Of a stretch of 64,000 bases of DNA, positions 29,101-60,115 are shown in pieces. Location of the stretch: NCBI GenBank assembly GCA_044892505.1, contig CM097882.1, positions 239,754,001-239,818,000 on the forward strand, given 5' to 3'. The DNA is from Schmidtea nova (taxonomy: Eukaryota). The notes beneath the pieces are model-generated. The model made no database searches and was not told where the DNA came from. It saw only the letters and a list, made by a program, of their open reading frames with translations. The position numbers and the translations under genes are program-made. Position 1 is the first letter of the stretch. Each line of letters opens with the position of its first letter.

Positions 29101-30046
29101 TGAAGAAAAAAGACACAAGACTAAGTTCATGTAATTATTTATTAACATAGACAATGAGTGGTGAGAAAAGCTCGCGTTTGTTTTTTTGAAGTGGATACAC
29201 AGTATGCAGATATCGCGCAAGAAGTTTATATAAAATTGTTGGGTATTTGCGATGTTTAGTCGGTGCTGTTAGTCTGACTCCTCGGTGTTCTTTAAATTTG
29301 ATTCAATAAAATAACCCAACACAGAAGAATTTATTTGTAACAATCACACTTTTGACACACTAAGTCTCTTTAAAATTTCACAATAACTTTTATCACTGCT
29401 TCTCCGACTTCGCGTAGGGATAAGTCTCCCCAAGGAAGATCTCCCTTTCTGGTACACTGGAATAATAAATTTGGTTTGGAACTTTTCAAATATCGCTCTT
29501 AACTCCTCACTTGCTGAATTCACTCACTTTTTCTTCGACCATTCTGGCAAACTTTAGTATTTGTCGTTCCCTTTTATACTGTTTCTGGTGATTGGTTTCC
29601 CACTTCGCTGCAACTGTCAAATGGTACTTTACGATTTGACGTTTTAATTTTCCATCTGTCGGTTACTCTCCGGGTCTCCTCCAAAGTTATTTTTCTCAGG
29701 AATTATTACCTGTCATATTGCTTGTCCGGGTTTCCCACACTCTCCGGGTTCTCCATTGTCTCGGGTTTCCCATTTGCTCGGGCTTTCCCTTAGCCAATTA
29801 ATTATTAATTAATATTTTAATATTTTAATTATTTCTTTCTGGGGACCCCCCATTGACTTTGTTTTATTATTTTTGGATTCGTTTCAATATTCGGCATCCA
29901 CCCATACCAATTTCCCCCGCTAATTCTCGGTTTTCGAATTTTACCTAAATTTTAATTAATTTTGAAAATTTTATACTTTATTGATTGTTACTAAGTTTTT
30001 ATGATTTTTATTTTTGTATTTTTCTAATTTTTACCAAACCCCAACA
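29101..30046 (-). repeat. 3' LTR, ~946 bp (TGTTGGGG...CTTCA)
   Basis: Begins TG directly after a PPT. Contains TATATAAA (29225-29232) and AATAAA (29138-29143) and ends CA. The first 62 bp recur at 46852-46913. The left boundary is inferred. Confidence 0.8.
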
Positions 30047-32061: not shown

Positions 32062-32245
32062 GTTTCAAAATTCATACAATTGTGTACACAGTCGCTAACT
32101 ACTGTCGCTACGCATCTGACTCGTAAAAGCATAAAACGAATTATTCTTTATTATTACAATAATAATGAATCGGTATGAAATATACGTTGTCAACAATTCT
32201 TTTTGTTTTATTATTATTAAAATAAATTTTAATAGTTGGAATTAC

Positions 32246-34346
32246 GGTGACCGGACAAAACAGAACAAGACAAAACAGAACATGACAAAACAGAACATGA
32301 CAAAACAGAACAAGACAAAACAGAACAAGACAAAACAGAACAAGACAAAACAGAACAATGACAAAACAGAACATGACAAAACAGAACATGACAAAACAGA
32401 ACATGTGGAAAAAAAGTTATATATTATATTACATTATTTTTATTTTACATTATTATTGTACATATTATTAAATTATTATTTTACAACTGGAGGTTGGCCA
32501 TTTTACATTTGCAGCGATTTGAATTACAATCGAATTTACAATTACAGTATTCCCCAATTTTTATAAAAACACTTTTGGAAATATTTAACTTTAAATAATT
32601 TCTATAAATTCTTTATTCTTTCCTAGTGCGATTTTTTCTATAAAATTTAACTGACTTTTATACTTTTTTCTACCTTGTCAGAAAGGAATTGATCCTATAA
32701 GTATCTCTATTGCAGTATAATATTATCATTATAGATTTGTATTTCAAGTGATACAGTTAAATTAAAGCTTTAAAATAAATAATAAAATCATGGAATATTC
32801 AATCACAAATAAAGAAAATAAATGTCTATTGTACCAAGGCTATGAATATACAAAGTATAGGGAAAACCAAGACTGAGTCGTCACCTGGAGATGCAGAATC
32901 TACTTTTCCACGAAATGCTGAGCATTGTTGAAAACACAAGGAGAAAACATCGTTGGAGAGGTCCCTCAACACTGCCATCAATCAAATCCTCAAAAAGCAC
33001 AGGCAAATATTTTAAAGGCTAAGATTAAGAAGGACATAAAAGCAATTGGTGCAACTCCAAGAAATATTCTGGGAAATGCCTTAGCATTAGTAAATAGCGA
33101 TGTTTTGGAACATTTACCAAAGCAATCCTCACTCACAAGAAATCTTGGTAGACATAAGGAAACTTTTTCTTTGCCGAATCCAGCTACAACTGATTTTATT
33201 ATACCAGAGAAATTTCTTGATCTCATTTTATATGATACAGGAACTGATGATCCAGAAAGAATATTGGCAATCGGGAATAATGATATTGCCTCAGAGCTAC
33301 ACAAGGATGTCATTTATGGAGACGGAACATTTGATAAAGCACCTAACATGTTCTATCAGCTGCATACATGGCATGCTAAGATTGGAAATTCATATCCTCC
33401 ATGTATATATTTTCTTTTACAAAAAAAGAATATGAGTACATACAACAGGATGTTTGTAATACTAAAGGAATTGGTGCCCAATATGACACCTCAAAAAATT
33501 CTACTGGATTTTGAAAAAGCATGTATGTCTGCTGCTCAAGCTGCTTTTCCACAAGCAGAAATAAAAGGATGCTACTTTCATCTCAGCCAAAGCTTAATTA
33601 GGAAGATCAACAGTGTTGGATTGAAAGCACTATATGAGTCCGATATTGACATAAAGTTGAAACTGAAGTCGTTAGCTGCACTCTCCTTTGTTCCAATCTT
33701 AGATTTAAAAACTGTCTTTGACGAACTAGCTGCAACATTTCCAGATGAGGATGCCTACAATCAAATATTAGCATATTTCTGCTCAACCTACATTGAAGGA
33801 GTTGCTGGAAGATCACCACTCTTTCCAATAAGAATATGGAACCATTTCGAGGCTGCTGCTGAGCGATCTCCCAAGACAACAAATTGTTGTGAAGGTTTTC
33901 ACAACGCATTAAATTCAATATTTCATTGTAGTCACCCAAGCATATGGAATTTATTAGATGGACTAAGACGAGATATGGCTTGTCAGCGATTAATACTAGC
34001 CAATGCCCAGACAGGTCGCCAAGAAGTGATAAAAAAGAAGTACGAAGCCATTGCTCTCCAAGTGTCAATAGTTGTGCAGGAATACCACGCTCACGAAGAC
34101 AAATTGAGGTATTTACGCAGAATGGCCAACCTCCAGTAATACTTACAACATCAAGATTAGATGTAAAATAATATGTACAATAATAATTTAAAATAAAAAT
34201 AATGTAATATAATATATAACTTTTTTTCCACATGTTCTGTTTTGTCACTGTTCTGTTTTGTCACTGTTCTGTTGTGTCTTGTTCTGTTTTGTCATGTTCT
34301 GTTTTGTCATGTTCTGTTTTGTCTTGTTCTGTTTTGTCATGGAACC
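32246..34346 (+). mobile_element. MULE/Mutator DNA transposon, 2101 bp, with TIRs built of 15-bp tandem repeats
   Basis: GGT...ACC termini; 8-bp TSD GGAATTAC (32238-32245, 34347-34354); ~230-255 bp TIRs with (ACAAAACAGAACATG)n arrays. Confidence 0.95.
32790..34139 (+). pseudogene. MULE transposase (FLYWCH + DDE) with two in-frame stops near the N-terminus
   Basis: The ATG at 32790 is in frame with ORF 32925-34139. LLYQGYEY...TWRC...C...H.H; YGDGTF, ILLDFEKA, KGCYFHLSQ, TTNCCEGFH. TGA codons interrupt the FLYWCH part. Confidence 0.92.
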
Positions 34347-34789
34347 GGAATTACAGTCTACTTCTTTTTAATAGAAGGCATTTTTTTTTAAAATGTATAG
34401 TTTATACAAACGGTATTTATGATGACAAGTGGGTAAAGTAGTGATCTGCTTTCAATATCACAGTGTTGATAAAAGTTAAATGGCAACTACAATTTTTTTG
34501 CTTTGTATGTCAGTGTTTCAATTTAGCAATTGAGCATCAATATTCTCCTGTAGTGTTTTCGATCATCTCATTTATAATTTGTTTCTTTTGGGAAATGAGA
34601 AGTAAAGAGGTATGAACTTAATATTGTATTCCCAATGATAAACACAGTGTGACGGGAACTACAGAACGTAAATGTTTTACTTTATTTATTCAATTATATG
34701 TTTAATGTAAGTTCGATTTAATATTTATTTTACTTAACACTATGCGAAATTTGAAATTTAATAATAATTCGAATGATTGTGTGACGTCG

Positions 34790-35279: not shown

Positions 35280-36743
35280 TCAATCCATTCTTATCTCGAT
35301 TCGATTAGATCCATGCTTGTAACGAACAATTGTTTCTTCTCGTTCATAGATAACACCGCTGTATAATATGGTTTTGCTGACTTCAATTGTCGAATCTGCT
35401 TTCCTTCTCAACTCGTTTACTTCTCTAGGCATTGGGCCATATCCTAACGTGGGTTGGAGTTTCACAATGTTCCAGTTTGGTATTGTTTCCAGACTCTCTT
35501 CAACTGGATCTATCAATGTTTCCACTGGATAACTTAGATCAATAATAGGAACTTCGCTCTCTTCCATTACTATGTCTTCATTTGTTAGATCTATTGCTTC
35601 CATAGCCATGTTCTCCGGGATTTGTGCTAACTTTTGCCTATCGGTTCCTTGAGTTAATTTGGATGTGTTGGCATATAAAATTTTGTATTCCTTTAGAGAA
35701 TACTTTCTTGATGGTTGTTTTCTGGGAATCACTATATCGTCAATCCATTGATTCTCTACCCGTTGGTATATCTTCCGTATCGTTTTGACATCCTCCAGCG
35801 CAGAGTGTATCCCAACCTGCGTTTCTTCTCCGCATATTTCCCGTGCTACCGTCTGCAGCTTGAACCACTCTCCTCTTCTGGTTACGTTCATTCTTTGTAG
35901 TATTTGTGCAGCTGCAAGATCCCGTATCCCATACAGTTGATCTACCCATATTCCAAGATACTGTAGTTCGGCGTGTAAATCGTGGCCTATTAATATTTTT
36001 CCCACTGTTAGCCTCTGAATATCCTTCATTTCCGAATATTGATCATGCTGATTTCTGCTGGCTACCTCTGTAATTCCATGGATCTTGGAATTGAAATGGC
36101 CAATTTTTCCTCTTGGGGTCAAATACACGTCTTTAATTATTTTTCCATGGTAATTTATCATCGCAACTGATAAAGGGATCATTCTTTTCGTTTCCGATGT
36201 GGCATATTCCGCGTCCACAAATATTGTTCTGTTCCGAATTTCTTCCATATCCATTTTTTTCCTAATGAATGAGAGTTTCCTTTTTAACATTTCTGCTGAT
36301 ATTTTCATCAACGTTGAATCCTGTTCCTCTGATGGCTGTGCGCTTGGCCTCTCATTTGGCTCGTTTTCTATTCTTGTTTCTAAAACAATGATTGTTTCCT
36401 CATTCGCTGCGCGTATAGGTTTCGCCATGATTTCATTTTGGATCTTCCAGGACGAAAATTTCTTCAATTCCATCCACGGCTGATTCCCGTCCATTATTTC
36501 TACTGTTCCTTTGATAACATGTAGGTAATATTGTTCTTTATTGGATATTCGAACTTCGTCCGCTAACTTCATTCCCATCTTTCGGTGTATTCTGAGTATT
36601 TTAATTTTCATTTTTCGGTCGTCGATTCTGAAATAATTTGGGATTTGTAAGTTGTCTGTAATCTGGAATTTTTGCCCTGCATGGCGTCTTTGCAGCTTTG
36701 CATAGCTGTCTAATGTGGATCTTGTCCATTGAATTTGTTCCAT
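35280..36743 (-). CDS. Retroelement accessory ORF, 487 aa, with REX4/ISG20-like DEDDh 3'-5' exonuclease
   Basis: ExoI FVDAEY (36207-36218), YLTPRGKIGHFNSKIHGIT, ExoII ILIGHDLHAE, IRDLA, ExoIII HSALEDV (35790-35807). Intronless, same strand, ~410 bp downstream of the polyprotein stop. Confidence 0.88.
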   Translation of the reverse strand: MEQIQWTRSTLDSYAKLQRRHAGQKFQITDNLQIPNYFRIDDRKMKIKILRIHRKMGMKLADEVRISNKEQYYLHVIKGTVEIMDGNQPWMELKKFSSWKIQNEIMAKPIRAANEETIIVLETRIENEPNERPSAQPSEEQDSTLMKISAEMLKRKLSFIRKKMDMEEIRNRTIFVDAEYATSETKRMIPLSVAMINYHGKIIKDVYLTPRGKIGHFNSKIHGITEVASRNQHDQYSEMKDIQRLTVGKILIGHDLHAELQYLGIWVDQLYGIRDLAAAQILQRMNVTRRGEWFKLQTVAREICGEETQVGIHSALEDVKTIRKIYQRVENQWIDDIVIPRKQPSRKYSLKEYKILYANTSKLTQGTDRQKLAQIPENMAMEAIDLTNEDIVMEESEVPIIDLSYPVETLIDPVEESLETIPNWNIVKLQPTLGYGPMPREVNELRRKADSTIEVSKTILYSGVIYEREETIVRYKHGSNRIEIRMD

Positions 36744-36748
36744 TCTTA

Positions 36749-36831
36749 CTGAAATATTTATAATTAAAGGTTTATCAATATAAAATTTGAAGCTAGGGTT
36801 AAGATGAAGTGCCCAAAGGGTACTGTCTTAC
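36749..36831 (-). other. Putative 83-nt 5'-UTR intron / splice acceptor for the exonuclease ORF
   Basis: Donor CAG|GTAAG at 36831 and acceptor TATTTCAG ending 5 nt before the ATG. Confidence 0.45.
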
Positions 36832-37151
36832 CTGTAGCTGTATATATATAAATATTAATAAAAAAATTACCAATTTAAAATTTTGAAATCGGATTTATTT
36901 AAAAAATTTTAAGTTTAAAGGATAAGCGCTTCCTTATATGCCCCTTTCAAATTTTCTATAACCTATTTCCTACTTTCCTACTCCCCCTTGTCTTTTAGTG
37001 TTAGCCAATCAAATTTATTCTTCCTTTCTTTCGTCGGAAAAGCAGTTTTACATAAACATTGATGATACTATCACTGAAAACACTGAATAACATGTAAAAA
37101 ATAATACTACTACTACGTTATCAAAATTGCATGCAAATTAATCATGTCTTA

Positions 37152-40100
37152 CTACACAATTGTTTCTTCATAGATCATCCAAGGTCTCGAAGGCTCGGAT
37201 TGAATCGTAGAAGGTCTGTATATTTTTATCGATTCGCAAAAGACAATAGCGCCAAATGTGATGAGAAAGATTGTTAGGATAATGATGGTTATAAATAATA
37301 TCACGCACGCGATTTCTTTGTCATTGTTTATTAATGATATAGTTTTATTATTTACAATTGATTTATTGGTGATGTCATTGAAAGGCGTTGTCATCTGATT
37401 TTGGTACAGTGCATTTGAATCGCTGTCATCTATTTTGTCGTAAAAGATTTGGACGAACTTGTCCTCGACTAAAGTTACTCGCCATAGATTAGAATACGAG
37501 GTGCGACGCTGATATTTGATTTTCATAAAGACAAATTTTGACCTTGACTTTGATCGTAGTTGTTGAAATGTTAATATTTGAGATTTATTGCTGCTGTCTA
37601 AGATTGCCTGAACTTTTCCACAATAGTATATAATAGCTTTTTGATTTGGGTCTGCTCTCCAAGTAACATTTATTAACTGATTGTAGATATAAAACTGAAC
37701 TCGGTTCGTTTCGTTGATCAATTTTATCGCTTGTTGACTAGACTGAATTTCAATCCATAGATTATCGCTGACGGTTACATTATCATATAAGGATTTTTCA
37801 TAATAACGGAACAAGATATTATATGTCTGAAATAATTTCAAATTAACATAGTTTATAAAGGGTTTTCTGCTGTTCAGCGTGTCTATAGCATAATTCTGGA
37901 AGACAGTTTTCACTTGTTGGGTTTCTTGTGGTTCCCAATGTACATTAATTCCATTAACAACGGGTTCAATAGAAACAAGATGCTCTAACCTTTTCGTCCA
38001 AACATCGAGATGTACCATATTATATATTTTTGTAGTATTCCCTTTAGAGCTTAATTGTGTTATTAGCCACTGATATTTATAATTCATCGTTAATTGCCGT
38101 GCCACGTGAGTGTTTTTATTATAATTCAATCTAACTGGGGGTTCAAAATAATCTAGTAAATTATTTACTTCAATTTCCTCTTCCCTTTCACCGTGAAAAA
38201 ACCATACGATCTGGGTACATGTTGCATATATGTGAATTTTATCCATCAATGGGATTCTTTTTGTTGCATACGAGGGAAAAACTCGTATTGCACTTATACA
38301 CAAGACATTTGCCATCATTATTGTTGAAATCAACAAGACTTTGTTGATATAGTTTAGTGGAGCTGAGTTTTTTGTAAATTTTTGTTTTACTGCTCCTTCT
38401 CCGTCTTTAATTAGTTTTGATCTCAATGGATATCGTGTTATTTCCTCCGACGGAACTTTCTTGCACCGGTTTACATGAACAATTATTGTTCCAGCTTTTT
38501 TATTATTCTGTGGGCGTAATTTCAAATTAGTTTCTGTAGTATCACATACGATATATGGTCCTTTAAACGGTCGCTGCAATTTTGGGGATAATCCCTTTGT
38601 TGGCTCTGGTTTATTCACATAGACTAAATCACCAATTTTAATATCATGTGCATGAGTGCGCTTGTCGTAGCACTCCTTATATGCTTCTTGCTGATGTTTT
38701 ATTTTAAGTCCGGCTTGAATCCAAACTGTCTGGAGTCTTTCTTGCATAATCACTTTATAATCTGATACATCCATATATCGGGAAATAGGCGACTGAAATT
38801 TCAGATCGATAGGCATATTGTTTCTTCGTAAGTACATGAGATAGAAAGGTGTTTCACCGGTACTTTCGTTCACTGCATTTCTGTATGCATACAAACATGG
38901 TTTAATGAATAAATCCCAATCTTTTTGTTTTCTATTTACGTATGACGATATCATATTAATTAGTGTTTCATTGAATCTTTCCACTAATCCATCTGTCTGT
39001 GGGTGATATGGTGATGTACTGATTTTCATTATTCCAAATAATTCTGTAATTGATTTGAACAATTCGCTTTGAAAATTTGTTCCTTGGTCAGTAAGCATTT
39101 TCTTTGGTGCCCCATATCGAAATATTATGTTTTCCACATACATCTTTGCAACTGTCTCAGCTTTCTGGTTTTGCATGCGGTAGGCTTCTGGCCATTTGGT
39201 TAAATAATCACAGAAGACAATAATGTATTTATTGCCGTTTGTCGTTTCTGGTAATGGACCGACAATATCCATTGCCGTCATTTCCATTGGTGCCACCGGT
39301 ACAGACATTGGTTTTAAAGGAACTCTAATTTTTCGTCCTGTGTTTCGTCTAGTTAAGCATATTTCGCAAGTATGACACCATTGTCTGACATCTTGTTCTA
39401 TAGTGTCCCAATAGTATTTTTGTTTTAATCTTGACAATGTTTTTCGAGCTGATAAATGCCCTCCTAATGCTCCGTCATGATACAACAATAATAATGATTT
39501 TCTATGTTTTGTTGGAACTATAATTAATAAATTTTCATTTCTTACGCATTTTAGCAAACCATCATGTATAATGTATTTATGTCTTTCCTCAACAATGTGC
39601 TTCCAGTCGCTTTCTTTTCTAATTGTAACAGCCTGTTGCCGTAGCTGATTCAATTCATCATCCTTTTCTTGATCACTTTGCAATTCCTTCATATTATTTG
39701 CCGTTTTCATTGCCATAAATATAGTGTTTTCATACTTTGTTTCATATTGAACAACGTCCTCCTCCTCTGAAATTCTCGACAGCGCGTCTGCATTTGCGTT
39801 CGACTTTCCTGTACGATATTTGATCTCAAAATCATATTCCTGCAACGCAATTGACCATCTTATCAGCTTACTTGCCGAGTCTCTGTGCTTCATTAGCCAT
39901 TGTAATGGGTTATGATCAGTGAAAACAACAAATTTCCTACCGATTAAGTATTGCCTGAACGTAGTTATCCCATATACTAATGCTAACGTTTCTTTTTCAA
40001 TCGTAGAATAATTCTTTTCATGCGGTCTTAACGTTCGACTGGCATAAGCGATAACGTGATCTTTCTCACCTTCTACTTGTTGACCTAGTATCGCCCCTAA

Positions 40101-43100
40101 TGCAAAATTACTAGCATCTGTCATCAATAAGAATGGCCTTTTAAAATCAGGGCATCTTAATATAGGTTGTTTCATTAAGCTTTCTTTGAGTGCATCGAAT
40201 GCTTCTTGTTGAGCCGTTGCCCATTTAAATTTTGCTTGCTTTTTTAACAGCACATTTAAAGGTTGTGCGACATGCGAAAAATTTCTTATAAATTTTCTGT
40301 AATAACTAGCTAGTCCTAGAAATTGTCGGACTTGGTCTATATCTTTGGGAATCGGATATTTCTTAATCTTTTGTACATTTTCCGGATTCGGCTGCAATCC
40401 TCGCCGGGAAATAATATGACCTACGTAAACAACTTCAGATTTTCCCCATTCACATTTTGACGGTTTTATCTTTAGGTTTGCCTTTAACAATCGTTTAAAT
40501 ACTGTTTCCACATCCCTCAGATGTTCCTGAAAATTGTTTGAAAATATTATCATATCATCAATATACACTAGTGCATGTGGGATGTCCCGTAATACGAAAT
40601 TCATACCTCTTTGAAAGGTAGCCGGTGCTCCCGTTAAACCAAACGGTAAGACATTAAACTCGTACAGACCTTTACCGTCTGAAAACGCAGTTTTTCTTCT
40701 GTCCTCTTCTTTGACCTTAAACTGATTATACCCTTTGTTAAGATCAATAACAGTAAAGAATTGCACCTCCCCCATTTGATCGAACATTTCTTGGGGAACT
40801 GGAATAGGGTATGTATCTTTTCTTGTGACTTGGTTTAACTTTCGATAATCTACACAGAATCGTAGATCACCATCTTTCTTTTTCACTACCACGATTGAAG
40901 CTGAAAATGGTGATGAGCTATCTCTTATTATTTTGAATTCTTTCATTGCTTTGATTTGCCTATCACTTTCTTCTTGATGAATGTATGGAATCCTATATGG
41001 CCTCAATTTTATAGGGGTTTCGTCCAACAATGGTATCTCATGTTCAATCACTTGAGTGAGTCCCAAATCATATTCATGTTTCGCGAACACATTCCTATAT
41101 CTCTTTAGTAGTGCCGTAAATTCTTGTTTTTGCTCATCTGTCAAATCATTACTTGTAATTTGAGGTCCTTTGTAAATCTTTATATTTCTGGGCAACCTTT
41201 GTACTTCTTCTTGTTTTATTTTTGTCAGTTTCCCCAGCTTTGTTTTGGGTTTCATCTGAATAGATTTTGTGCTACAATTTGCTAATCTTACTGGTACGGT
41301 TTTGTCTTTAACTTTTACTACTTCATCGCACATTGGTACGTCGTACTTCTCTATCAATTTTTGATTTGGTTCAAATATACATTCTTCTTCGGAGACATTC
41401 ATTACATTGGCATAGTATATAACTTCGCTTTTTGGTGGTATTTCCAAAGTTTGATTTAAAAAAACTTGTCCCGCTTCGTGCACAACTTCACCAGATAGTC
41501 CTTTCATCAATTTTCCCATTCTTAAATCAAGAGAAATTCCTTGTAATTGTTCCATAACGTCCATTCCAATCAAGCATTTGACAGGGCTTTTTCTCATTAC
41601 AGATACCCAATGAGTTACTTCTTGATTTCCAATATTCAGCTTAACTTCCAATTTTCCAACGATATTCAATACATTATGCGTCATTGATTTAATAATTTTC
41701 GTAGTTGGCTTCATTCTTGCCTTCTCCTGACTCGTCAAGAGATTCTCAGATACTATGCTGTGACTTGAGCCTGAATCCAATAACGCTTCAACTTTTCGTC
41801 TATTAAATTGTATGTCAATTCGAGGTTGTTTTCCTCCCAATTCTATGGTCATCAATGCATAACTACAAGGTAAACCAAGCATATTCTTTCTTTCAATTTC
41901 GGCGCTTGATGGTTCAATCTTTTCTAATTCGACTTTAATCTTATCAACTGGTTTCATTTCTCTCAACTTCTCACTTGGATATACAGGAGCTGTTGGCATA
42001 AATGTCGGTGTGTACCATTTAGAGAGAGTGTCAATTCCAGTTAGTTTTGGTATTGGTTCCATCAAGAATCTGGATTCGGGGTCTATTCTACTTTTTATTA
42101 TACCCCGTCGAAACGATTTTGGCTCTGATCTGCCGCCATTGCTATCATTGTTGTGACCCTTATTTTTATCTTCAAATTCGCATAGTGATTCTTCACTTTT
42201 CAGATCATTTTTCAATTGTGCTCTAACACTTGCCATTTCCTCATATTGATGATTTGTAATGAAGAATCTAGCCAAAAACGGAATACAACCAATAATCATT
42301 TTCCATGACCATCCGGAAATTGCATATATTCGATGAGCGGACAATATTTGTGATATTATTACTTTTATTGTTACTGCAACTACATAAATGCCAATTAAGC
42401 CTGCACAAGCTTGTCCTAAAAACATAAATCTTCCCCAAATTTTTTCCATTGTTTTAAATGTAGCTCGTTTAAAATGATCAGGTGTCAGCAAATATTCGTA
42501 ATTAACTTTTCCTTCTCCATTTGGCAGTATTGTATCAATCATCTCAGAAATCACTCGTTCCTTTTTTGATGGGAATAATAAATTTCTTTGGGCTTCTTCT
42601 ATATCTTCGCTTGCGTATAGACCCATTTGTGCCATCTTATTCATTGATGTGAAATTTACCAAGTACTCTAAATTTATTAATTCCAATTTATCTGGAGTTC
42701 TAACTCCCCGGTAGTCTGGTAACGCTATCCATGAATCTTGTGCTAAACGATATAGTGGAGCTAATAATCGATTACATTGTAGAATTTTCGGTTTGACTTG
42801 TTCTTCCAACAATATTCGAGTTATCGGTTCCATGAATCGTAATTTCCCGCCAACATTTACCGGTAATTCATTTGTACATTTCTCATATTTCGCGATTTTC
42901 ACTATACTTTCTTTGCACCTGTAACTGTATAATGCTTCTCCAAAGATCCTAGCGAATACACCATTTTCTGATATTAGCATGGGTGCTACTAAATTTGGAT
43001 TAGTAATTGCCATTGCCATTCGATTTCTAAGTATTTCCTTGTTCAACTTACAGTCGTTTAGAATCATTTCTCTATATACGTTTTCCATGATGTTTTGACT

Positions 43101-46100
43101 AAAATGAAACAAATAGTCAATTTTATTATTGAAGTAATGAGTTAATTTGATATCATCCCGGTGAATTCTTGTTTTAGCCTCATATACGATTGTTTTAGAT
43201 ACATAAACTCCTTTGTAATTTGTTGCATATACAGTTTGACCACATTTACTCGTTATGTCCTTTTTTATGAAACGCATGCCGTCTGTTGGCAATGTTGACA
43301 TTAACACTGTTGCCGTTTGTCTCGTCCAAACTGGGGTTGATCTAACTGTATTGTTCGGTTTATAATTCACATTAAAATTGTCCGGTCTTTCCCTAAATTG
43401 CTCTCCGCTCAATTCTTTGAAATTAATAGTTTTTAAATGGGATAAGTTGCATATATTAGTCTTGACATCATAGACAAGAATCGATTCCCCAGTGTGACAA
43501 CTAGTTTGTTTCATATTACAGAATGGATGAGTTTGTAACTTTCCTGTATCGTCATCAAACGACCCTTCGAATACTCTCAATTCTGTTAGATATTCCTCTA
43601 TTACTACTGCTTGTTTTATCACTTGATCATTTATTTTATACGGTTCTCCCTCACAATCGCCGTCTGATTTCATTACTCCTTTCACAATTAATGTTTCTCT
43701 GATTTGATGGTTTACTCGAGCTTTCAATCGAATTTCAGGACTAATTTTTAATTCCCCTGTTTGAAATGCCGTTAAACAGTTTTCTGGTAACACGTCCGCC
43801 GGTCGTGGAATAGCATGCATTTTTATCATCGAAGTATGGCTCCATTTGCCACAAAAGAATACGAACGTGGTTCGTTTAACGATACATTCCCTAACTTGAG
43901 AACGCCGTAAATCGGATTCTTGGTAAACATGATACTTTGCTTCATTTTCAATTTTTAATTTTCTTGGGTATGCATCTGGGCATTCTGTCATATCGACCAC
44001 AGAATAAATTTTCCCCATTTCTGTTTGTGAGCAATCGTATGCCACCAATGAAGTAGCTTGTGCAATTATTGTGCATAAAATAACCATCATGAACAGCACC
44101 CAAGGGAATATCGTAGTTTTTCTTAGTTTTGGGTCTACTTTTTCGTTCAACTTTCTTTGAGGTGGATTCTCATCTTCTTGTTTCTTTCTTTTCTTTGTTA
44201 TAGATGAATTTAATGCTTTCCACCCTCCAAGCTCTTTTATCCCTTTCATCAAACATTCATTTAATAGTCGAGCCGCAGTGTCAATCAAATTCTCAATCTG
44301 ATCTGGCCTAGTAAATGCACGAATACCAATTTCGGAAACCACATGTGTTAAACTTGTTAACACTGTTTTTCTATCGATTCCATTTTCGATCAATTTTTCA
44401 ATCCTTTCTCTTTTACAGAAATCACCCTTTTTTTCAAATTCATGCTCAATTTTTGGAAGTCTCTCTTTCACTTCCTCAACCATCCCTTTCAATTCCTCCT
44501 CAGCTTCTGGTTTTATTTTTAGAATTGGGTAAACAGTTTTAACTAGGTTTCTTATTATTCCTTTAGTTTCATCAACTTCCCGCTCTATATTTAATAAATA
44601 TTTCTTCATCTCATATAAAGTTCTAGGTTTAGTACTCCAATTATTCATTTCCACTTTCTCGACATTTGTCTCTCTGCTAATTGTAGTTTCTGCTACCTGA
44701 ATATTGACTTCTTTCTGATCATCACCTTCATCGTTAGCTATTGCGGTTTCATTTTCTCCTATTTCATCTCTCTTTTCTTCTGTGTGGGAGGATTCCCCGT
44801 TGCCAAGCATTCTCGGGTTAAATTCTTTATTTGCTATTATACGGTTAATTAAATATCCCTGACTTCCATCAGTACTTAAATATCCATATTCATCTAATTC
44901 TTGTGGCATGCATCCACAGTCGTATAAATATTCATCGTCATCCAGTGCTTCACCTTTATGTTTCAATACTATAATTCCATCTTGTCCTAACATCTCCGTA
45001 GCTCTTCTACGTATTTTCCGCACTTTCGTACACCAATGCTCTTCTACATACTCAGTTTTTCCAATATCTTCGTATTCTATTGCAATTACTAATAAATTCA
45101 ATTCTGCTCTATCTTCTCTAAGCTCTTTGCCCAATTTTCTCAGTAATCTCTTTAAATTTCTACTATATCTGGTTCTTTTAAACAGATGCGGTCGTATTAC
45201 GTTGATAATTTCTATTTTATCCTTTTGCTCAAATTCAGATTTCTCAATTAATTTCACTATTTCATTTATTTCGCTTTCATCGCCAATATATAAAACATCA
45301 GATAGCTCCATTAACACTTCCCTCGGATCACTTTTCACCATTTCACAACTACTCCTCATATTGACTATTTGTAACTCATTTTTATCTCCTGGTATAAACC
45401 CACAGTCTACCAAATATTCCTCGTTATCTAATTCTCTATTTTTAAATTTTAATTCTACTACCCATCCTTCGCATTTTTCTCTTAGTCTCCTTTTTAAATC
45501 TTTAACACAATCATAGGCTTCACATCGACAAGTAATCAGACTTTTATCACATTCATTAACAACATCAATAAAAATAAAATCTAACCATCCATTTTCTCGG
45601 AATGCTTTTCCAAATGTTTTCATCAACTCTTTGATTTCATCTCTATCTGCTAAATTTATTTGATAATAGTTTGCACACAAATTAATCACGCATTTTAGTT
45701 TTCTCATACTCAGTGACATTTGACTCAACTTTTTAATTGACATTAATATTTTGGATGACTCTTTTGCGCTAGCTTCTAGCAATTTCTCAAGTCTCTTCAT
45801 CATTATTGTAACTTTTTCGCTTTCCAAATCGTCCTTTGTACATACTCCTTTCGCTTCCGTTTCAGTCATATCCGACCCATACATCATGTGATTATCTAAT
45901 TCCTCATCAGATTCAAACTTAGACATTAAACGATCCAAGCGTCGACCCATTTCTTTCACTTGACTTTCAATTCTATCATTAAATTCGTCTGATTGAACAA
46001 AAGCAACATTTTCTGCTGGCATTCTATCATTTTGAAAACGAATTGATTTTTTTAATATTGGTTTCTGAAATTTATCGACATTTCTCGGGCATGATCTAGC

Positions 46101-46496
46101 CATATGTCCATAGCCTCGACATGAATGACATTGAATTTGGCCTTGAAGGTTCACTCTATCTCGTTGTGGTGATGGCGAAGTGGATGGAGATCTCGATCTA
46201 GCAAAACAATTACGTGAAACATGTCCTTTCCTTCCACAATTGTAGCATTGTATATTATCATTAGTTCGTTGATCTTTAATGCTAAATTTATTTAAGCTTT
46301 TTTCATTATTACCCTTCATCCAATCTGGCCACATTCGTTTTGGGCTTCGTTGTACATTATTTTTAGACCAGCATTGATTGCTATTGTGACCAATCTTTTG
46401 ACAGTGATCACATTGAATTGGAGTTGGGCTTTTTGCGATCGGTTCTTGAACCAACATTGATCGGCATGATGTCCCATCCGTTGACAATAACTGCAT
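37152..46496 (-). CDS. 3114-aa polyprotein: gag C-terminus - accessory domains - class III glycoprotein - PR - RT - RNase H - IN - second membrane protein
   Basis: CCHC knuckles; LVAYDC (44031-44048); LLDSGS (41769-41777); LRFCVDYRKLN; YIDD (40554-40565); TDAS (~40115); H..H/C..C, MDIVGP, LTDQG, GLVER; FKGPY. The true start is upstream, in the gag frame. Confidence 0.97.
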   Translation of the reverse strand: MQLLSTDGTSCRSMLVQEPIAKSPTPIQCDHCQKIGHNSNQCWSKNNVQRSPKRMWPDWMKGNNEKSLNKFSIKDQRTNDNIQCYNCGRKGHVSRNCFARSRSPSTSPSPQRDRVNLQGQIQCHSCRGYGHMARSCPRNVDKFQKPILKKSIRFQNDRMPAENVAFVQSDEFNDRIESQVKEMGRRLDRLMSKFESDEELDNHMMYGSDMTETEAKGVCTKDDLESEKVTIMMKRLEKLLEASAKESSKILMSIKKLSQMSLSMRKLKCVINLCANYYQINLADRDEIKELMKTFGKAFRENGWLDFIFIDVVNECDKSLITCRCEAYDCVKDLKRRLREKCEGWVVELKFKNRELDNEEYLVDCGFIPGDKNELQIVNMRSSCEMVKSDPREVLMELSDVLYIGDESEINEIVKLIEKSEFEQKDKIEIINVIRPHLFKRTRYSRNLKRLLRKLGKELREDRAELNLLVIAIEYEDIGKTEYVEEHWCTKVRKIRRRATEMLGQDGIIVLKHKGEALDDDEYLYDCGCMPQELDEYGYLSTDGSQGYLINRIIANKEFNPRMLGNGESSHTEEKRDEIGENETAIANDEGDDQKEVNIQVAETTISRETNVEKVEMNNWSTKPRTLYEMKKYLLNIEREVDETKGIIRNLVKTVYPILKIKPEAEEELKGMVEEVKERLPKIEHEFEKKGDFCKRERIEKLIENGIDRKTVLTSLTHVVSEIGIRAFTRPDQIENLIDTAARLLNECLMKGIKELGGWKALNSSITKKRKKQEDENPPQRKLNEKVDPKLRKTTIFPWVLFMMVILCTIIAQATSLVAYDCSQTEMGKIYSVVDMTECPDAYPRKLKIENEAKYHVYQESDLRRSQVRECIVKRTTFVFFCGKWSHTSMIKMHAIPRPADVLPENCLTAFQTGELKISPEIRLKARVNHQIRETLIVKGVMKSDGDCEGEPYKINDQVIKQAVVIEEYLTELRVFEGSFDDDTGKLQTHPFCNMKQTSCHTGESILVYDVKTNICNLSHLKTINFKELSGEQFRERPDNFNVNYKPNNTVRSTPVWTRQTATVLMSTLPTDGMRFIKKDITSKCGQTVYATNYKGVYVSKTIVYEAKTRIHRDDIKLTHYFNNKIDYLFHFSQNIMENVYREMILNDCKLNKEILRNRMAMAITNPNLVAPMLISENGVFARIFGEALYSYRCKESIVKIAKYEKCTNELPVNVGGKLRFMEPITRILLEEQVKPKILQCNRLLAPLYRLAQDSWIALPDYRGVRTPDKLELINLEYLVNFTSMNKMAQMGLYASEDIEEAQRNLLFPSKKERVISEMIDTILPNGEGKVNYEYLLTPDHFKRATFKTMEKIWGRFMFLGQACAGLIGIYVVAVTIKVIISQILSAHRIYAISGWSWKMIIGCIPFLARFFITNHQYEEMASVRAQLKNDLKSEESLCEFEDKNKGHNNDSNGGRSEPKSFRRGIIKSRIDPESRFLMEPIPKLTGIDTLSKWYTPTFMPTAPVYPSEKLREMKPVDKIKVELEKIEPSSAEIERKNMLGLPCSYALMTIELGGKQPRIDIQFNRRKVEALLDSGSSHSIVSENLLTSQEKARMKPTTKIIKSMTHNVLNIVGKLEVKLNIGNQEVTHWVSVMRKSPVKCLIGMDVMEQLQGISLDLRMGKLMKGLSGEVVHEAGQVFLNQTLEIPPKSEVIYYANVMNVSEEECIFEPNQKLIEKYDVPMCDEVVKVKDKTVPVRLANCSTKSIQMKPKTKLGKLTKIKQEEVQRLPRNIKIYKGPQITSNDLTDEQKQEFTALLKRYRNVFAKHEYDLGLTQVIEHEIPLLDETPIKLRPYRIPYIHQEESDRQIKAMKEFKIIRDSSSPFSASIVVVKKKDGDLRFCVDYRKLNQVTRKDTYPIPVPQEMFDQMGEVQFFTVIDLNKGYNQFKVKEEDRRKTAFSDGKGLYEFNVLPFGLTGAPATFQRGMNFVLRDIPHALVYIDDMIIFSNNFQEHLRDVETVFKRLLKANLKIKPSKCEWGKSEVVYVGHIISRRGLQPNPENVQKIKKYPIPKDIDQVRQFLGLASYYRKFIRNFSHVAQPLNVLLKKQAKFKWATAQQEAFDALKESLMKQPILRCPDFKRPFLLMTDASNFALGAILGQQVEGEKDHVIAYASRTLRPHEKNYSTIEKETLALVYGITTFRQYLIGRKFVVFTDHNPLQWLMKHRDSASKLIRWSIALQEYDFEIKYRTGKSNANADALSRISEEEDVVQYETKYENTIFMAMKTANNMKELQSDQEKDDELNQLRQQAVTIRKESDWKHIVEERHKYIIHDGLLKCVRNENLLIIVPTKHRKSLLLLYHDGALGGHLSARKTLSRLKQKYYWDTIEQDVRQWCHTCEICLTRRNTGRKIRVPLKPMSVPVAPMEMTAMDIVGPLPETTNGNKYIIVFCDYLTKWPEAYRMQNQKAETVAKMYVENIIFRYGAPKKMLTDQGTNFQSELFKSITELFGIMKISTSPYHPQTDGLVERFNETLINMISSYVNRKQKDWDLFIKPCLYAYRNAVNESTGETPFYLMYLRRNNMPIDLKFQSPISRYMDVSDYKVIMQERLQTVWIQAGLKIKHQQEAYKECYDKRTHAHDIKIGDLVYVNKPEPTKGLSPKLQRPFKGPYIVCDTTETNLKLRPQNNKKAGTIIVHVNRCKKVPSEEITRYPLRSKLIKDGEGAVKQKFTKNSAPLNYINKVLLISTIMMANVLCISAIRVFPSYATKRIPLMDKIHIYATCTQIVWFFHGEREEEIEVNNLLDYFEPPVRLNYNKNTHVARQLTMNYKYQWLITQLSSKGNTTKIYNMVHLDVWTKRLEHLVSIEPVVNGINVHWEPQETQQVKTVFQNYAIDTLNSRKPFINYVNLKLFQTYNILFRYYEKSLYDNVTVSDNLWIEIQSSQQAIKLINETNRVQFYIYNQLINVTWRADPNQKAIIYYCGKVQAILDSSNKSQILTFQQLRSKSRSKFVFMKIKYQRRTSYSNLWRVTLVEDKFVQIFYDKIDDSDSNALYQNQMTTPFNDITNKSIVNNKTISLINNDKEIACVILFITIIILTIFLITFGAIVFCESIKIYRPSTIQSEPSRPWMIYEETIV

Positions 46497-46860
46497 TGAA
46501 TTGGTTGTTCTTTTTCGTCGATTTGAACACGTGTTGATTTATTCATCTCAAAATTTGGTCTAAATTTTGGTGATGGACTACTTGATTGCTGGAGCCGATT
46601 GTTTCTGGCTGGAGAATTGGATCTTTCTCTTGATTCATTGATAATGGCGAAGGATTCTGATTTCGGCTTTGCACTTTTTAAATTTAATTCAATTTTCATA
46701 GCCTTTTTGATTAACTCATCGAAGTTATTGAAATCTACATAACATAAGGCTTTTTTGATTTCCCCTTTTACTCCCGCTAAGAACTGATCTTGTAATAGTT
46801 CCTTTACCTGCTTTGCCACTTCAATCTGTTCCGGTTTTACTTCGAAGGCCTTTGTTACTA
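46430..46860 (-). CDS. Upstream gag segment (capsid end + first Zn knuckle), offset by one base from the polyprotein at an A5 run
   Basis: LQDQFLAGVKGEIKKAL...FDELIKKAMKIE and CSYCQRMGHHADQC. Restoring one A at 46430-46434 fuses it to SPTPIQCDHC. Confidence 0.88.
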
Positions 46861-46913
46861 AGTTTTTATGATTTTTATTTTTGTATTTTTCTAATTTTTA
46901 CTAAACCCCAACA
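46852..46913 (-). repeat. 62-bp stub of the 5' LTR fused directly to mid-gag
   Basis: Matches 29985-30046 with one mismatch. The junction falls in TTAGTAACAA, which reads LVT in the gag frame. Confidence 0.9.
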
Positions 46914-47360
46914 AAATCTATCATGAGAAACATCAGTTAAACAAATTAATAACAGAACACATGGAAATAAATTAAATAAAACATGTTAATAATTTAAACT
47001 GAACAAAAGCGCATCAAGTATACACGTTGAAAACACAATTATAACATAAAAACATCAATTGCAGAATAAAATTACAAATTTGGAAAAATTCACATATTTT
47101 CGGAAAGAATATTTCTATTTTTATCTTAAAAACTTGTAAATTATAAAATAAAATTGATTTAAATAAAAATTTAGTAAATCTAACTAAATTAGTAAAAACT
47201 TTAATTCAAAATAAAAATTTTGGATTAAAATAAATTAACTAAATTTTTTATAAAACTTTACACAAAATAATAATTTAATTTTCCCTAAAATCGTTAAAAT
47301 AAATTTTGAAAAAATCGAAAATTCAACCTAGTATATTTGTTTTAAACACACCCCAGAATA

Positions 47361-50300
47361 ATGAAGAGTCCGAAAAAAATTTTTTATGATACACCCGCCG
47401 TTAACCAGTGCTTAGTTGAATGTCTTCACATAGACATTCCTAGCACTGGTCAGAAAGAAGATCCCGATCAAGCTATTATTTCATATAAAAACAATAACTT
47501 AATTTTTCCTTCTAGAACATCATCCTTACAACCTCTCGAAACTATGAAGAAATATAACAAAACCCAGAATTTTTCCATCAACATTAAACTATCCATCTCA
47601 AACCCTATTCCCAATTCTACTTATGTAAATACCACCGATGGAACTCTCAACCCAAATGATAATAAAATAATATCTCAAAAATCAGAGAATTTGAAATCCA
47701 ATAAAATTACAGAATCTCTAACTAAGTCTGAAGAATTCAATTCTAATTTAGAAATTTTTACTAATAAAAATTTCAAAAAGAAAAATAATGAAAATCATTA
47801 CTACTTTAATAATAAAAATTACCATTCGAATCAAGAAACGTATAATAAATCCTATAGAAAAGAATATCATAATAAAAATTTAAAAAATAAAAATTTCAAT
47901 TTCGAAAACTATGAAAAATATGATAATAACACCAATTATTATAAAAATACTGAAGAACCTAATAAAAAATATCAACTTAAAAACTATGAAAATAATAAAA
48001 ATAAAATACCAAAATTTGAAAATAAAGAAGAATATTATAACACCAATGAAATGAATACAGAAGATTATATAAAAATTAAAAAATTTAACTTTTTAAATGA
48101 TTATTATCAAAAAAAACCGAAAATATTTTAAAAAACTCGAAAAAATTCCTATAAATAGAATTATTTTCGAAATTTTAAAATCAAAAGCATTTTTTGAAAA
48201 TAGGGAAAATTTGTTTAAATTAAAAGCAAATTTCAGAGTTCCCGATAATGAAGAGTCCGAAAAAAATTTTTTGCCCCCCGCAGGGGGGCAAAAAACTCGT
48301 CCGCCTACGGCGGAAAATCAGAATGTAAATATCCCAGCAACTGAAAAAAAAGAACTATTCGGTTTTGAGAAAAACCCAAGATATCGTAACATCAGAAAAA
48401 TTAAAACTAATAAATCAATTACTCCGACAACATCAACAACAACATCAATTATCCCATCTACTTCAATTGTCCCACTCACATAAATTGTCCTACCAACATC
48501 AAGTGTCATACCAAAATCAATTGTCCCATCAATATCACTTGTCCCTTCAACATCAAAAGATCCTTCAACATCTAATGCTTTCCCTACATCTAATGCTCCT
48601 TCAACACCAAATGCTTCTTCAACACCAAAGGTTCATCCAACATCCAAAACTCCTTCAACATCAACTACCCCTTCAAAAACAACAGATCTTCCATCATCAA
48701 CTGGCCCTACTGCCACTACTCCTTCAACATCTACTGTACCTTCAACATCAACTGCTCCGTCTACTTCAACTGCTCCTTCAACATCAACTGCTCCTTCAAC
48801 ATCAACTGCTCCTTCAACATCAACTGCTCCTTCAACATCAACTGCTCCTTCAACATCAACTGCTCCTTCAACATCAACTGCTCCTTCAACATCAACTGCT
48901 CCTTCAACATCAACTGCTCCTTCAACATCAACTGCTCCTTCAACATCAACTGCTCCTTCAACATCAACTGCTCCTTCAACATCAACTGCTCCTTCAACAT
49001 CAACTGCTCCTTCAACATCAACTGCTCCTTCAACATCAACTGCTCCTTCAACATCAACTGCTCCTTCAACATCAACTGTTCCTTCAACATCAACTGTTCC
49101 TTCAACATCAACTGTTCCTTCAACATCAACTGTTCCTTCAACATCAACTGCTCCCTCAACATCAACTGCTCCTTCAACATCAACTGCTCCTTCAACATCA
49201 ACTGCATCTTCAACCCCAACTGCTCCTCATAAATCCCTCCCAAACATAAATACCACACAAATTGCTACCCACACTGTCCCGAATGATATTGCCATAGCAA
49301 ATCTGTATTACTCATTTTATAAACCCTCTATACAGATCAAAGGAAAACCTGATGAAATATTCCGTATCATTGAAAAAACTCCAGTAAACTGGGATATCTT
49401 TAATCAGGAAAGGTTAATAAAAACTGAAGATATCAAAAATTTAAACAATTCACAAATTCGAGTATTAGTGAAAGAATATGCCTCGCTCCTCTACTCACTG
49501 AACAACATTAAACAAGAAAATTTGAAACTACTTCAAGCTGCAAATGAAAACTTTATTGCATGGCAACCAATACTCGAAAAAATAGGAGGAATCACAGATT
49601 TCATTAAAATTAAGAACTTACAGAAAGAAGTCATTGAAGATTTATTTAAAAAATATCACAATATCCACACCACTCCATCAACTACTCCATCAACATCTAC
49701 TATTCCCCCAACGGCAACCACTAGTTCAACATCTACGGGTCCTTCAACATCTACTGCTCTCTCAACATCTACTACTCTTTCAACATCTACTACTCCTTCA
49801 ACATCTACTACTCCTTCAACATCTACTACTCCCTTGACCTCTACTGCTCCTTCAACAGCGACTGACCCTTCAACATCTACTGCTCCCTCAACCTCTACTG
49901 TTACTCCAACAGCCACTGATCCCTCAACATCTACTAATCCATCAACTTCTAAACAATCAAACAATATCTTCATCTTCGGTTCTACACCCTCAAATCCTAC
50001 AAATATTTCATGTAACACTAATATCCACAAATACAATACCAGATTGAATACTAAAATTATCTCTCTCCCAGATAAAGAACAGACTGCTTCCTATTACACA
50101 ACTTATAATCCAACACCCTCCGAAAAAAGAAAACCACTTGAAATATTTAAAATCATCCATAAAACTCCAATTTTTTGGGCCATCTTTAACAAAAATAAAA
50201 AACTCACCACTAAGGATATTCACTCGATGAATGAGCCAACAATTGAAGACCTGATAAATCACTATATCGTTTTCTTCTCTTCCCCTCCACTTCATCTGGA

Positions 50301-50817
50301 TAAATCAATAACATTCCAAGTAATTCATAATGATATATACAACTGGCTCCCTGCCTTGGAAATTTATGGAATCACAGACTACCTTACCCTATGCAACTTA
50401 TCAGCAAACGACATGAATAAACTTAACTTTGAATACAACAATGAAAGTACTCAATCACAAAAAGACCTCATTGAATTTGCAGGAGAATCCATGTTCAATA
50501 CTACCCAAAGACCTATTGAGAAAATTTATGCATCAGTTAGCATTATCGACCTGATGTATGACATCTCCAAATTAAAAAATAAAATGATTAATAATGAAGA
50601 AAAGAGAATTTCAATATCACACTGCAAACCCCCAACTTGGTTCCCTCTCTTATGCATCCTAGGTGAGGACGCCATCGATTATCTAGAAATATCAAAATCT
50701 GAATTCATTAAAATGTTGATTAAAGCCCAAACATTTCATAAAGAAAGTCACTTTGTATCAATTGACCTTCCTGAAGATGACCTGGATAAAATGATGTGTG
50801 AATATTTACACATATAA
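47361..50817 (+). pseudogene. Unassigned ~1150-codon ORF (one frameshift, one stop): N/K-rich N-terminus, mucin-like S/T/P arrays, duplicated unknown domain
   Basis: 47361-48131 overlaps the frame of 48097, which is open to 50817 except for TAA at 48481 (probably TCA>TAA). No recognisable family motif. Confidence 0.6.
48720..49215 (+). repeat. 18-bp tandem array (CCTTCAACATCAACTGCT, encoding PSTSTA), roughly 25 units
   Basis: Near-perfect minisatellite, with a block of GTT variant units. Confidence 0.97.
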
Positions 50818-50850
50818 AAAATCTCTATCTCCCAATCAATCCTATCTTCC

Positions 50851-51300
50851 TGAATCCAATCTCCTGCTCTTAGATTCACACCTGCTCAACATTTTCAATC
50901 TTCCAATCAATTGTTGATCCTACTCACACCATTCCACAACATGTTCACCGAAACAAACTACTACCTCCTGCTCTAAGATTCGCACCTGCTCAATATTCTC
51001 AATCTCTCAATCAATATTCACTCCTATTCACACCGATCCTCAACTTGTATACCGAAACAAACTGCTCATTATTCTTGATCTCCCAATCAATACTCGCCTC
51101 TTGAATCCAATCTCTTGCTCTAAGATTCACACCTGCTCAATATTCTCAATTTCCCAATCAATAGTCAATCCTACCCACACCATTCAACAACATGTTCTCC
51201 GAAAAATACTACTACCTCCTGCTCTAAGATTCACACCTGCTCAATATTCTCAATCTCTCAATCAATACTCTCCTCCTGATCCAACAATCCAGTGTCCCTA
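50851..51300. repeat. Two ~250-bp tandem units, each with two copies of a ~45-bp core
   Basis: TGAATCCAATCTC at 50851 and 51102. The core CTCCTGCTCTAAGATTCACACCTGCTCAATATTCTCAAT occurs four times. Confidence 0.85.
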
Positions 51301-51676
51301 AACCAGACATTGGCTAGAAGTTTATGAAAATGCTAAAATAAGCTGGAATTAATGTCTCTGCCCTCAGGGGTGGGACTCGTTAGCCTGTCTCCTCGGAGCA
51401 GAAGTTTTTTTAAATAAAATTTGTAGGCCCACTTATCAGGGTGGGTCGCCTTATACAAAAACAAAAAAAAAAAAAAAAAAAAAAGTACTTCCCAGGAGTG
51501 TCACAGAAAACTCACCACTCTCGGATTTTTGAGAAATCAGGCGATCCTCACGGGAAGTTAGGGATCCACAGAAAGAAACTGAACTAAATTGTCACTGAGA
51601 AAAAATCATAAATATAATGTAAGGATGTCTTCATAAATAGGTAACGAATAATTCGGTTCATGCCACGATTATCCCA

Positions 51677-51939
51677 TGTCAGGTATTTCATTTTATTCGT
51701 ATCATTCGTATATTGTTATTATTTCATTCTTATTCAAATGGGTAGACTTATGTCAATTTTTTATAACTCATTATATTTTATTTTATTTATTATTTTATGA
51801 TTACGTTTTATCATTAGCGCGTATAATTATTTTGTGTGATAATAAGATAATTCAAATATTTATTCATCCAATAAATCTTCTTATTTAATCAATTTTTTTT
51901 CTTTAATAATCATTATTTTATATTATTCTTCTTTATACA
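51677..51939 (-). repeat. Candidate 3' LTR of the decayed Gypsy element (left end 51677 or 51422)
   Basis: Starts TGTATA directly after the PPT GGGGAGA (51940-51946). No partner LTR was found. Confidence 0.45.
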
Positions 51940-54900: not shown

Positions 54901-54940
54901 GATCCGTATGAGTTATCGCTCGTTTTTTGGCGCCATTTTG
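51940..54940 (-). mobile_element. Decayed Gypsy-like element of the same clade as the 12058 element (gag-PR-RT-RH-IN, many frameshifts)
   Basis: PBS-like TGGCGCC (~54929-54935); CFICNENH and CSRCEMLGH knuckles; LIDSGCS; TRLGFGINIAP; YIND (mutated YIDD); HINL..LDAIVKGINL; DCGPSRFAIW; NGIIERNHKTIK. Confidence 0.92.
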
Positions 54941-57651: not shown

Positions 57652-57684
57652 ACACAATATTTCGGCACAGCCTTTATCAAGTGT
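57652..57684 (-). ncRNA. Minimal hammerhead ribozyme (inverted copy)
   Basis: Reverse complement of 60083-60115. Confidence 0.75.
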
Positions 57685-58132
57685 GTATTTCTATCGTTAT
57701 ATTTACTTAATACTAAATAGTAGCCTTAATTATTTTTTTAATATTTTATAATGATTTTATTGGATGAAAAAATTTATTTTAATTTTTTTGTGCGAATTGA
57801 ATGTTGATGGACGGTTTGTATTTTTTTATGAAAAAAGTCTCGGAAGCTAATCTTTGTAATGAATTTTTGAATCCCTCTTGTAGAATCTGACATTTTGTTT
57901 CTTCTATAGATGGAGTTGTTTTATGTACTTTCTCCCAGTGTTCGTAATAATTACTGGTTTTGTTTTTAGTGTGTTCATTAAGTCGGGTGCGAAAAGTTCT
58001 ATGTGTTTCTCCTATGTAAGTAGCGTCACATTTTTGACAAGAAAGTTTATATACTATATTTTTGGAAAAGCAAAAGCATCGGGTTGTGGAACGGCAAAGA
58101 CATTTGTGTTTGGAAATGTTGGAAATTGGTGG

Positions 58133-59988: not shown

Positions 59989-60082
59989 AATAAATTTTTT
60001 CATCCAATAAAATCATTATAAAATATTAAAAAAATAATTAAGGCTACTATTTAGGATTAAGTAAATATAACGATAGAAATAC

Positions 60083-60115
60083 ACACTTGATAAAGGCTGT
60101 GCCGAAATATTGTGT
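60083..60115 (+). ncRNA. Minimal type I hammerhead ribozyme in the Penelope 3' repeat
   Basis: ACAC-TTGATAA-A-GGC TGT GCC-GAA-ATAT-T-GTGT; predicted cleavage after 60111. Confidence 0.78.

Follow-up and report, generated by a model that had tools for sequence, protein, structure and literature searches.

Retroelements with a gB-class envelope in GAG-ENV-POL order are present in flatworms, and the mechanism by which they enter cells is described as unknown, whereas HSV needs gD, gH and gL (Chary and Hayashi, PMC13524379). Smed_errantivirus_1-6 (Ty3/gypsy, HSV/gB-type env) share gene order and envelope type with the Schmidtea nova element studied here, and the gB row of Smed_errantivirus_1 in the supplement is closely similar by eye to our gB; the text consulted mentions no post-integrase membrane protein, and the main text contains no match to 'fibronectin', 'exonuclease' or 'Bcl' (PMC13524379). 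Burro (GYPSM1), a giant planarian Gypsy element, likewise encodes a single polyprotein with Gag, CCHC knuckles, Ubi/SUMO-like and BCL2-like regions (these two putative in our element, by eye) and an in-frame mononegavirus-like env before the protease, and the available text of that report describes nothing after integrase (PMC6431247). However, Burro exceeds 30 kb, has multi-kb LTRs and encodes 4873 aa (PMC6431247), against 16-17 kb, LTRs of 0.76-0.86 kb and a single ORF of 3345-3442 codons (3345-3442 aa) in complete copies of our element elsewhere in the same genome, and the BIR, MATH and ankyrin domains of Burro have no Pfam match here. The bdelloid Vesta/Juno LTR elements with extra ORF3s have also captured genes downstream of pol, among them DEDD exonucleases and small TM ORFs, but that cargo lies in separate ORFs, is DEDDy-type and not FN3, and is not additional to a gB (PMC5408684).

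The backbone of the element is already known, being that of the Burro-like, Schmidtea GAG-ENV-POL errantiviruses. The accessory glycoprotein that follows its integrase is real and under selection, and apparently undescribed so far. Literature searches, mostly of main texts, so that prior annotation is possible, returned no description of a post-integrase membrane protein, and no paper joining 'Burro' and 'fibronectin' was found.

The element and its post-integrase protein

The window (the whole stretch of 64,000 nucleotides of S. nova DNA that was analysed) carries on its minus strand a Ty3/Gypsy polyprotein with gag, gB-type env, PR, RT, RNase H and IN in one frame (37152-46538, 3128 codons in this copy; Table 1). 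Pfam matches follow the order CCHC knuckles, Monjiviricetes (chuvirus-like, gB-type) fusion glycoprotein, protease, RT, RNase H and integrase, and the fusion glycoprotein match (PF24664, aa 815-1463) lies in frame before the protease, as defines the GAG-ENV-POL gB-type errantiviruses. The hallmarks of a Ty3/Gypsy LTR element are present, namely PR-RT-RH-IN order, LTRs beginning TG and ending CA, a primer site, a purine tract and a target-site duplication, the last being 4 bp in all four fetched copies and in the window copy. LTR pairs reach 99-100% identity in five copies. The copy in the window (46913-29237) is defective, with a 1.44-kb 5' deletion, a frameshift in gag and a MULE insertion.

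The last 396 codons of the frame (minus strand 38342-37155, stop at 37154-37152), within which Pfam finds no match, encode the protein of interest, KVLLISTIMMANVLCISA beginning at 38342. The sequence-only reading had placed it at 37152..38340; the location stands and the true start is 38342. The anatomy that it had described, a signal-like stretch, an ectodomain of ~330 aa, a strong TM and a short tail, is confirmed, the ectodomain measuring 325 aa (from I19 to the TM), the single TM having a hydropathy of 2.9-3.1 and the tail 27 aa. The signal-like segment, signal 2, has a hydropathy of 1.7-2.0 in families A, B, D and E, and small residues at -3/-1 are seen by eye in the alignment of all six families, P0005 and P0006 (families and homologues are introduced below).

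Table 1. Features of the element, in positions of the window
Feature	Position	Strand	Basis or remark
Remnant (62 nt) of 5' LTR, then ~1.44-kb deletion (rest of LTR, primer site, gag start)	46852..46913	-	
Remaining gag with CCHC knuckles, frameshifted in window copy	46100..46853	-	
Accessory region: two ubiquitin-like-looking repeats and Bcl-2-like-looking helical domain	44151..45600	-	by eye, analogy to Burro (PMC6431247)
Signal 1 (internal) and gB-type env (chuvirus-like, class III) with its TM, in frame after gag and before protease	42150..44120	-	PF24664 E=5e-84; hydrophobic segments
Aspartyl protease, reverse transcriptase, RNase H	39834..41831	-	Pfam
Integrase (H2C2, rve, GPY/F region)	38517..39518	-	Pfam
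Basic linker from integrase end (VNRCK..YPLRSK) to signal 2; no Met in window copy	38343..38474	-	in frame in six families and P0006, whole-codon indels
Internal signal sequence 2, h-region VLLISTIMMANVLC, putative cleavage ISA/IRV (ISA before, IRV after)	38289..38342	-	hydropathy and by eye
Predicted FN3 domain 1	37992..38252	-	pLDDT about 85-94
Predicted FN3 domain 2, with most conserved sequon (N188)	37713..37991	-	pLDDT about 86-93
Predicted FN3-like domain 3	37440..37712	-	pLDDT 75-93; aligned only inside three-domain matches
Variable Ser/Thr/Asn-rich stalk, two sequons, predicted disordered	37314..37439	-	pLDDT below 50; length differs between families
Transmembrane helix	37236..37313	-	hydropathy 2.8-3.5 in families A, B, D, E; helix in both models
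Tail of 27 aa, end E-T-I-V-stop, class I PDZ-binding-type motif	37152..37235	-	
Separate ORF2, DEDDh exonuclease (ISG20-like)	35280..36743	-	PF00929 at its cut-off; ISG20 1wlj E=3e-7
Unrelated MULE DNA transposon inside 3' non-coding region	32237..34355	+	inverted repeats; PF10551
3' LTR	29237..30046	-	4-bp target-site duplication flanks element

Other parts of the element carry features of their own. The ubiquitin-like and Bcl-2-like regions gave no Pfam, PDB-sequence or Atlas match. At 44049-44663 (minus strand) the Bcl-2-like-looking domain lies shortly before signal 1, which, once cleaved, would act as its C-terminal membrane anchor; cellular Bcl-2 proteins have a C-terminal membrane anchor. 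The separate exonuclease ORF is found in families A, B, C and E and is absent from the family D copy examined. Upstream of it (35280-37150, minus strand), boxes that we take to be CCAAT-, TATA- and octamer-like are kept between families A and B, which suggests that the ORF may have its own internal promoter. A Y-x-L-R-S motif at the integrase end (38410-38440, minus strand) recurs near the Gag start (locus L022) and presumably recalls the chromatin-binding motif of foamy viruses.

Elsewhere in the window, a separate region at 46928-55647 is bounded by a 245-nt direct repeat (72% identical). Its minus strand carries decayed fragments of protease, RT and integrase, and its plus strand a 777-aa frame with abundant PSTSTA repeats. 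By eye, a 654-aa frame at 57590-60178 resembles a Penelope-type RT with a GIY-YIG-like end; it is overlapped by a 544-nt near-perfect inverted repeat and has a related copy at 1118-2096. A palindrome with 470-nt arms (98%) at 18243-19385 adjoins runs of N, and fragments at 4756-6704 of the window and at the loci L036 and L095 look Polinton/Maverick-like (similarity between window and L036; identity guessed from ORF motifs).

Conservation, predicted fold and tail motif

Searching the genome with the post-integrase protein gave 107 matches, from 105 scored of 2150 candidates under a scoring that favours intact copies; in this sample 98 of the 107 have no internal stop, so stops do not interrupt most copies, and 28 sit in unbroken frames of 3300 codons or more. 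Searches with distant homologues recovered further families. The six families found in this genome (A-F) differ in the ectodomain, at 32-66% identity, and in all of them it follows integrase without a change of frame. Of 70 distinct places, 53 read through from the integrase end to the end of the ectodomain in a single frame (74 loci matched and 59 were flagged; four duplicate places and two broken copies flagged in error were removed). Outside this genome there are four homologues (P0003-P0006), at 23-48% identity over matched stretches. P0005, whose annotation is that of a separate protein of 410 aa, has signal, ectodomain and TM complete, and P0006 (~22% identity) starts with an integrase end and continues in frame into a signal. 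These proteins have no genomic context, because neither metagenome contigs (query P0005) nor viral contigs (query P0002) gave a confirmed locus.

By a rough counting method, dN/dS is 0.12-0.21 in seven of 15 family pairs, the remaining eight being saturated, and lies above that of gB and pol. The sequence-only reading, that a type I membrane glycoprotein is joined in frame to the end of integrase, is supported, and the protein is conserved and under purifying selection. Ectodomain identity is 61% between A and B, where gB is 91% identical, and 38% between A and D, where gB is 70% identical; by these comparisons the post-integrase protein evolves far faster than gB, as would be expected of a host-facing surface. 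It occurs together with gB in A, B, D and E, the families read to full length, and in C.

The seven sequons of the window copy are all as first read (NTT 38039, NVT 37781, NET 37715, NVT 37670, NKS 37589, NKS 37367, NKT 37349). Their number does not exceed chance (7 against 4.65 expected from composition, P=0.19), and the count was rejected as evidence. One sequon, N188, is kept in all six families and P0003 and is absent from P0005, and N210 is kept in five of six families and P0005. Judged from the alignment, the weight of the sequon evidence lies in conserved positions and not in number.

The protein was initially taken as unrecognised and unlike any env; it is not a known env, but it can now be assigned, the prediction being three FN3 domains and a PDZ-type tail. 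An AlphaFold model built from 19 sequences is confident (mean pLDDT 80.3, pTM 0.67) and shows three tandem beta-sandwiches, a disordered stalk and a TM helix, so that a stable fold is predicted with the deeper alignment; a first model from nine sequences (pLDDT 48) was poor past domain 1, which already matched FN3 (Z 9.5, rmsd 2.1 over 79 residues). The best Foldseek matches were FN3 arrays, and the PDB matches listed were all FN3-containing proteins (best E=9e-11). Whole-model TM-scores are only 0.18-0.28, which we attribute to domain angles that probably differ. An Atlas match, taken as a lead only, also points toward FN3 (0.85-0.87). In the 19-sequence model, single-domain superpositions of domains 1 and 2 gave Z 8-8.8 and rmsd 2.4-3.2, domain 1 matching fibronectin ED-B (5n48_B; Z 8.8, rmsd 3.0 over 83 residues) and domain 2 the second FN3 domain of CD148 (7u01_A; Z 8.0, rmsd 2.4 over 79 residues). 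Both domains show the FN3 pattern, a sandwich of ~90 aa with Trp in strand B and Leu..Tyr in E-F, and these residues are invariant in the six families (W47, L84 and Y90 in domain 1; W136, L168 and Y174 in domain 2). Domain 3 was matched only within arrays, and its profile matches domain 2 (E=0.001; score 23.4, with 14.4 the highest value among 40 shuffles), while D1-D2 and D1-D3 scored no better than shuffles in the same internal-repeat test.

On these models the fold is predicted to be FN3-like though outside the Pfam fn3 sequence family: none of nine members matches PF00041, and a PDB sequence search gave no match to the protein. Searches of the 90% protein set gave no match or only P0005 at near length; at longer length they gave none, and this last negative is weak evidence. 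Like the FN3-array surface proteins of animals (fibronectin FN7-12, CD148, CD45, Tie2, neogenin, contactin, Dscam), the protein is predicted to have tandem FN3 sandwiches, and the receptors among them are likewise type I; it differs in its 5-23% identity in structural alignments, in the lack of a Pfam fn3 match and in having no enzymatic tail. The host genome has 92 fn3 matches, the longest frame being 1592 aa. The viral proteins named among the fold matches share 6-13% identity with it and are of general FN3 or Ig-like type, none being named as env. The fold by itself shows no function, because FN3 occurs in receptors, matrix proteins and phage tails. A class I retroviral or F-type env (furin site, fusion peptide, heptad helices) was considered and rejected, the ectodomain model being all-beta with no internal hydrophobic peak, and the protein is not a fusogen. 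A class I cytokine receptor was rejected as well, since the WSxWS motif and conserved cysteine pairs are absent from the alignment, in which no ectodomain cysteine is invariant. No RGD motif is visible.

The tail ends in E-T-x-V followed by a stop in five of six families, each with the class I PDZ ligand consensus (S/T-x-hydrophobic at a free C-terminus); family D lacks the motif yet has intact copies. Among the homologues, P0003 ends in T-Q-V and P0005 in T-L-V, at 22-29% identity and as protein sequences without a genomic locus; P0004 and P0006 are partial, and their ends differ from T-x-V. In natural copies the x position varies, V is sometimes replaced by L, and the motif codons vary synonymously. 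When the ORFs of the fetched DNA were grouped into 33 clusters, only two had an [ST]x[VIL] end, namely the post-integrase family and one ORF of a pol-less BIR-carrying element. From its sequence the tail is likely a class I PDZ-binding motif, for which S/T-x-hydrophobic is the consensus (PMC4810129). HTLV-1 Env, likewise a retroelement surface glycoprotein with an S/T-x-hydrophobic end (PMC4810129, PMC3395148), binds DLG1 through a class I motif at virological synapses (PMC4810129); there the motif lies on the fusogen itself, whereas here it lies on a separate, non-fusogenic protein, and no homology is implied.

The pol-less element just mentioned (L092-L094, L097-L099, L101-L104) is a high-copy LTR element of ~25 kb with LTRs of 4.1-4.4 kb and no RT or integrase, and is likely a non-autonomous Burro-like element. 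Its four large ORFs are protease-like, unknown, BIR-containing and coiled-coil; the genome has 1295 BIR candidates. The element has no gB or FN3 match and no match to the ectodomain profile, and its coiled-coil ORF ends in the same EETFV. The motif can therefore serve purposes other than entry.

Topology and candidate roles

Family A shows four hydrophobic peaks and no more, which read as signal, TM, signal and TM in turn. If each is used, the polyprotein would cross the ER membrane four times, at signal 1, the gB TM, signal 2 and the TM of the FN3 protein, and from this order Gag and PR-RT-IN would be cytosolic and gB and the FN3 protein lumenal. The four-crossing model is not certain, because a fifth hydrophobic peak is present in families B and D, within the Bcl-2-like region, and in family E, directly following the gB TM. 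Signal peptidase would free a membrane-anchored Gag, a gB-Pol piece and the FN3 protein, which would be glycosylated and delivered to the plasma membrane. There its tail may dock on a host PDZ scaffold at cell contacts and its ectodomain may grip the neighbouring cell, where gB would then fuse; direct binding of the FN3 protein to gB would not be required. The role that fits best is that of an accessory for adhesion or attachment in gB-driven spread from cell to cell, because the protein is predicted to be an FN3 rod on a stalk, evolves fast, would be made together with the fusogen and ends in a likely scaffold-binding motif. We judge this role, which fits the anatomy, about as probable as all other roles combined. 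A fuller version is more tentative: a two-glycoprotein entry system in one polyprotein, in which a captured FN3 receptor or adhesion ectodomain would attach and trigger (the role of gD/gH/gL) and would cluster at PDZ-scaffolded junctions, leading to a virological synapse, with Pol packaged on the gB tail and not as Gag-Pol.

The protein might instead manipulate the cell that produces it and have no part in entry: a receptor ectodomain, once captured, could serve as a decoy for ligands or as a dominant-negative, could block superinfection or, through the PDZ-type tail, could remodel junctions. We regard this, the main rival, as possible though doubtful. In its favour, the element has further cargo that is likely aimed at host control (the Bcl-2-like and ubiquitin-like regions seen by eye and the ISG20-like exonuclease), the fold matches include receptor FN3 arrays (Tie2, CD148, CD45, IFNAR1, IL-22R), no signalling domain is present in the tail, the EETFV end recurs on a gB-less element, and fast evolution would fit an arms race. 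Against it, the FN3 protein would be translated with Gag and gB in a one-to-one ratio, in the manner of structural proteins, whereas the exonuclease is encoded in a separate ORF, and the WSxWS motif and invariant ectodomain cysteines are missing. Fixed stoichiometry, and co-occurrence with gB in all families examined, would suit a direct partner of gB, either a gH/gL- or gD-like trigger or a folding chaperone that binds gB and controls its activation. This gB lacks an R-x-K/R-R furin site, and another trigger may therefore be needed. Yet the two proteins change at very different rates, no gH, gL or gD is among the fold matches listed, and the tree of the FN3 protein pairs D with E, as pol does, where gB pairs D with C (support 66), a comparison of five families and so of weak resolution; we consider direct partnership quite improbable.

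Two further readings concern what is retained and how it is expressed. If only the signal segment mattered, as a membrane anchor for integrase, the ectodomain would be a decaying passenger. The dN/dS above that of gB and pol leans that way, but values of 0.12-0.21, together with the persistence of the fold-core residues, of sequon positions and of the T-x-V end in homologues of 22-29% identity, largely refute this reading and leave it a very slight probability. Expression from a spliced subgenomic RNA, as for classical env, would make the link to integrase incidental and is compatible with any of the functions above. The classical env position and the stand-alone annotation of P0005 speak for such a route, which we nevertheless think unlikely: no family has a stop between integrase and the FN3 protein, linker indels are whole codons, and families A, B, C and F have no Met from the integrase end to the h-region. 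In four contig sets of unspecified kind, coding and intergenic parts are covered alike, and no GT-AG ends occur among the joints listed, a pattern that carries no information on expression.

How gB mediates entry is left without an explanation in a 2026 survey of Ty3/gypsy elements with envelopes, since equivalents of gD, gH or gL are not known (PMC13524379). The FN3 protein is a concrete candidate for an accessory glycoprotein, on recently active, multi-copy elements and in a host group in which RNAi and in situ work are routine. A multi-crossing polyprotein layout is familiar from RNA viruses such as flaviviruses and alphaviruses; in this element, four crossings of the ER membrane by the polyprotein would keep Gag and Pol apart, raising the question of how Pol is packaged.
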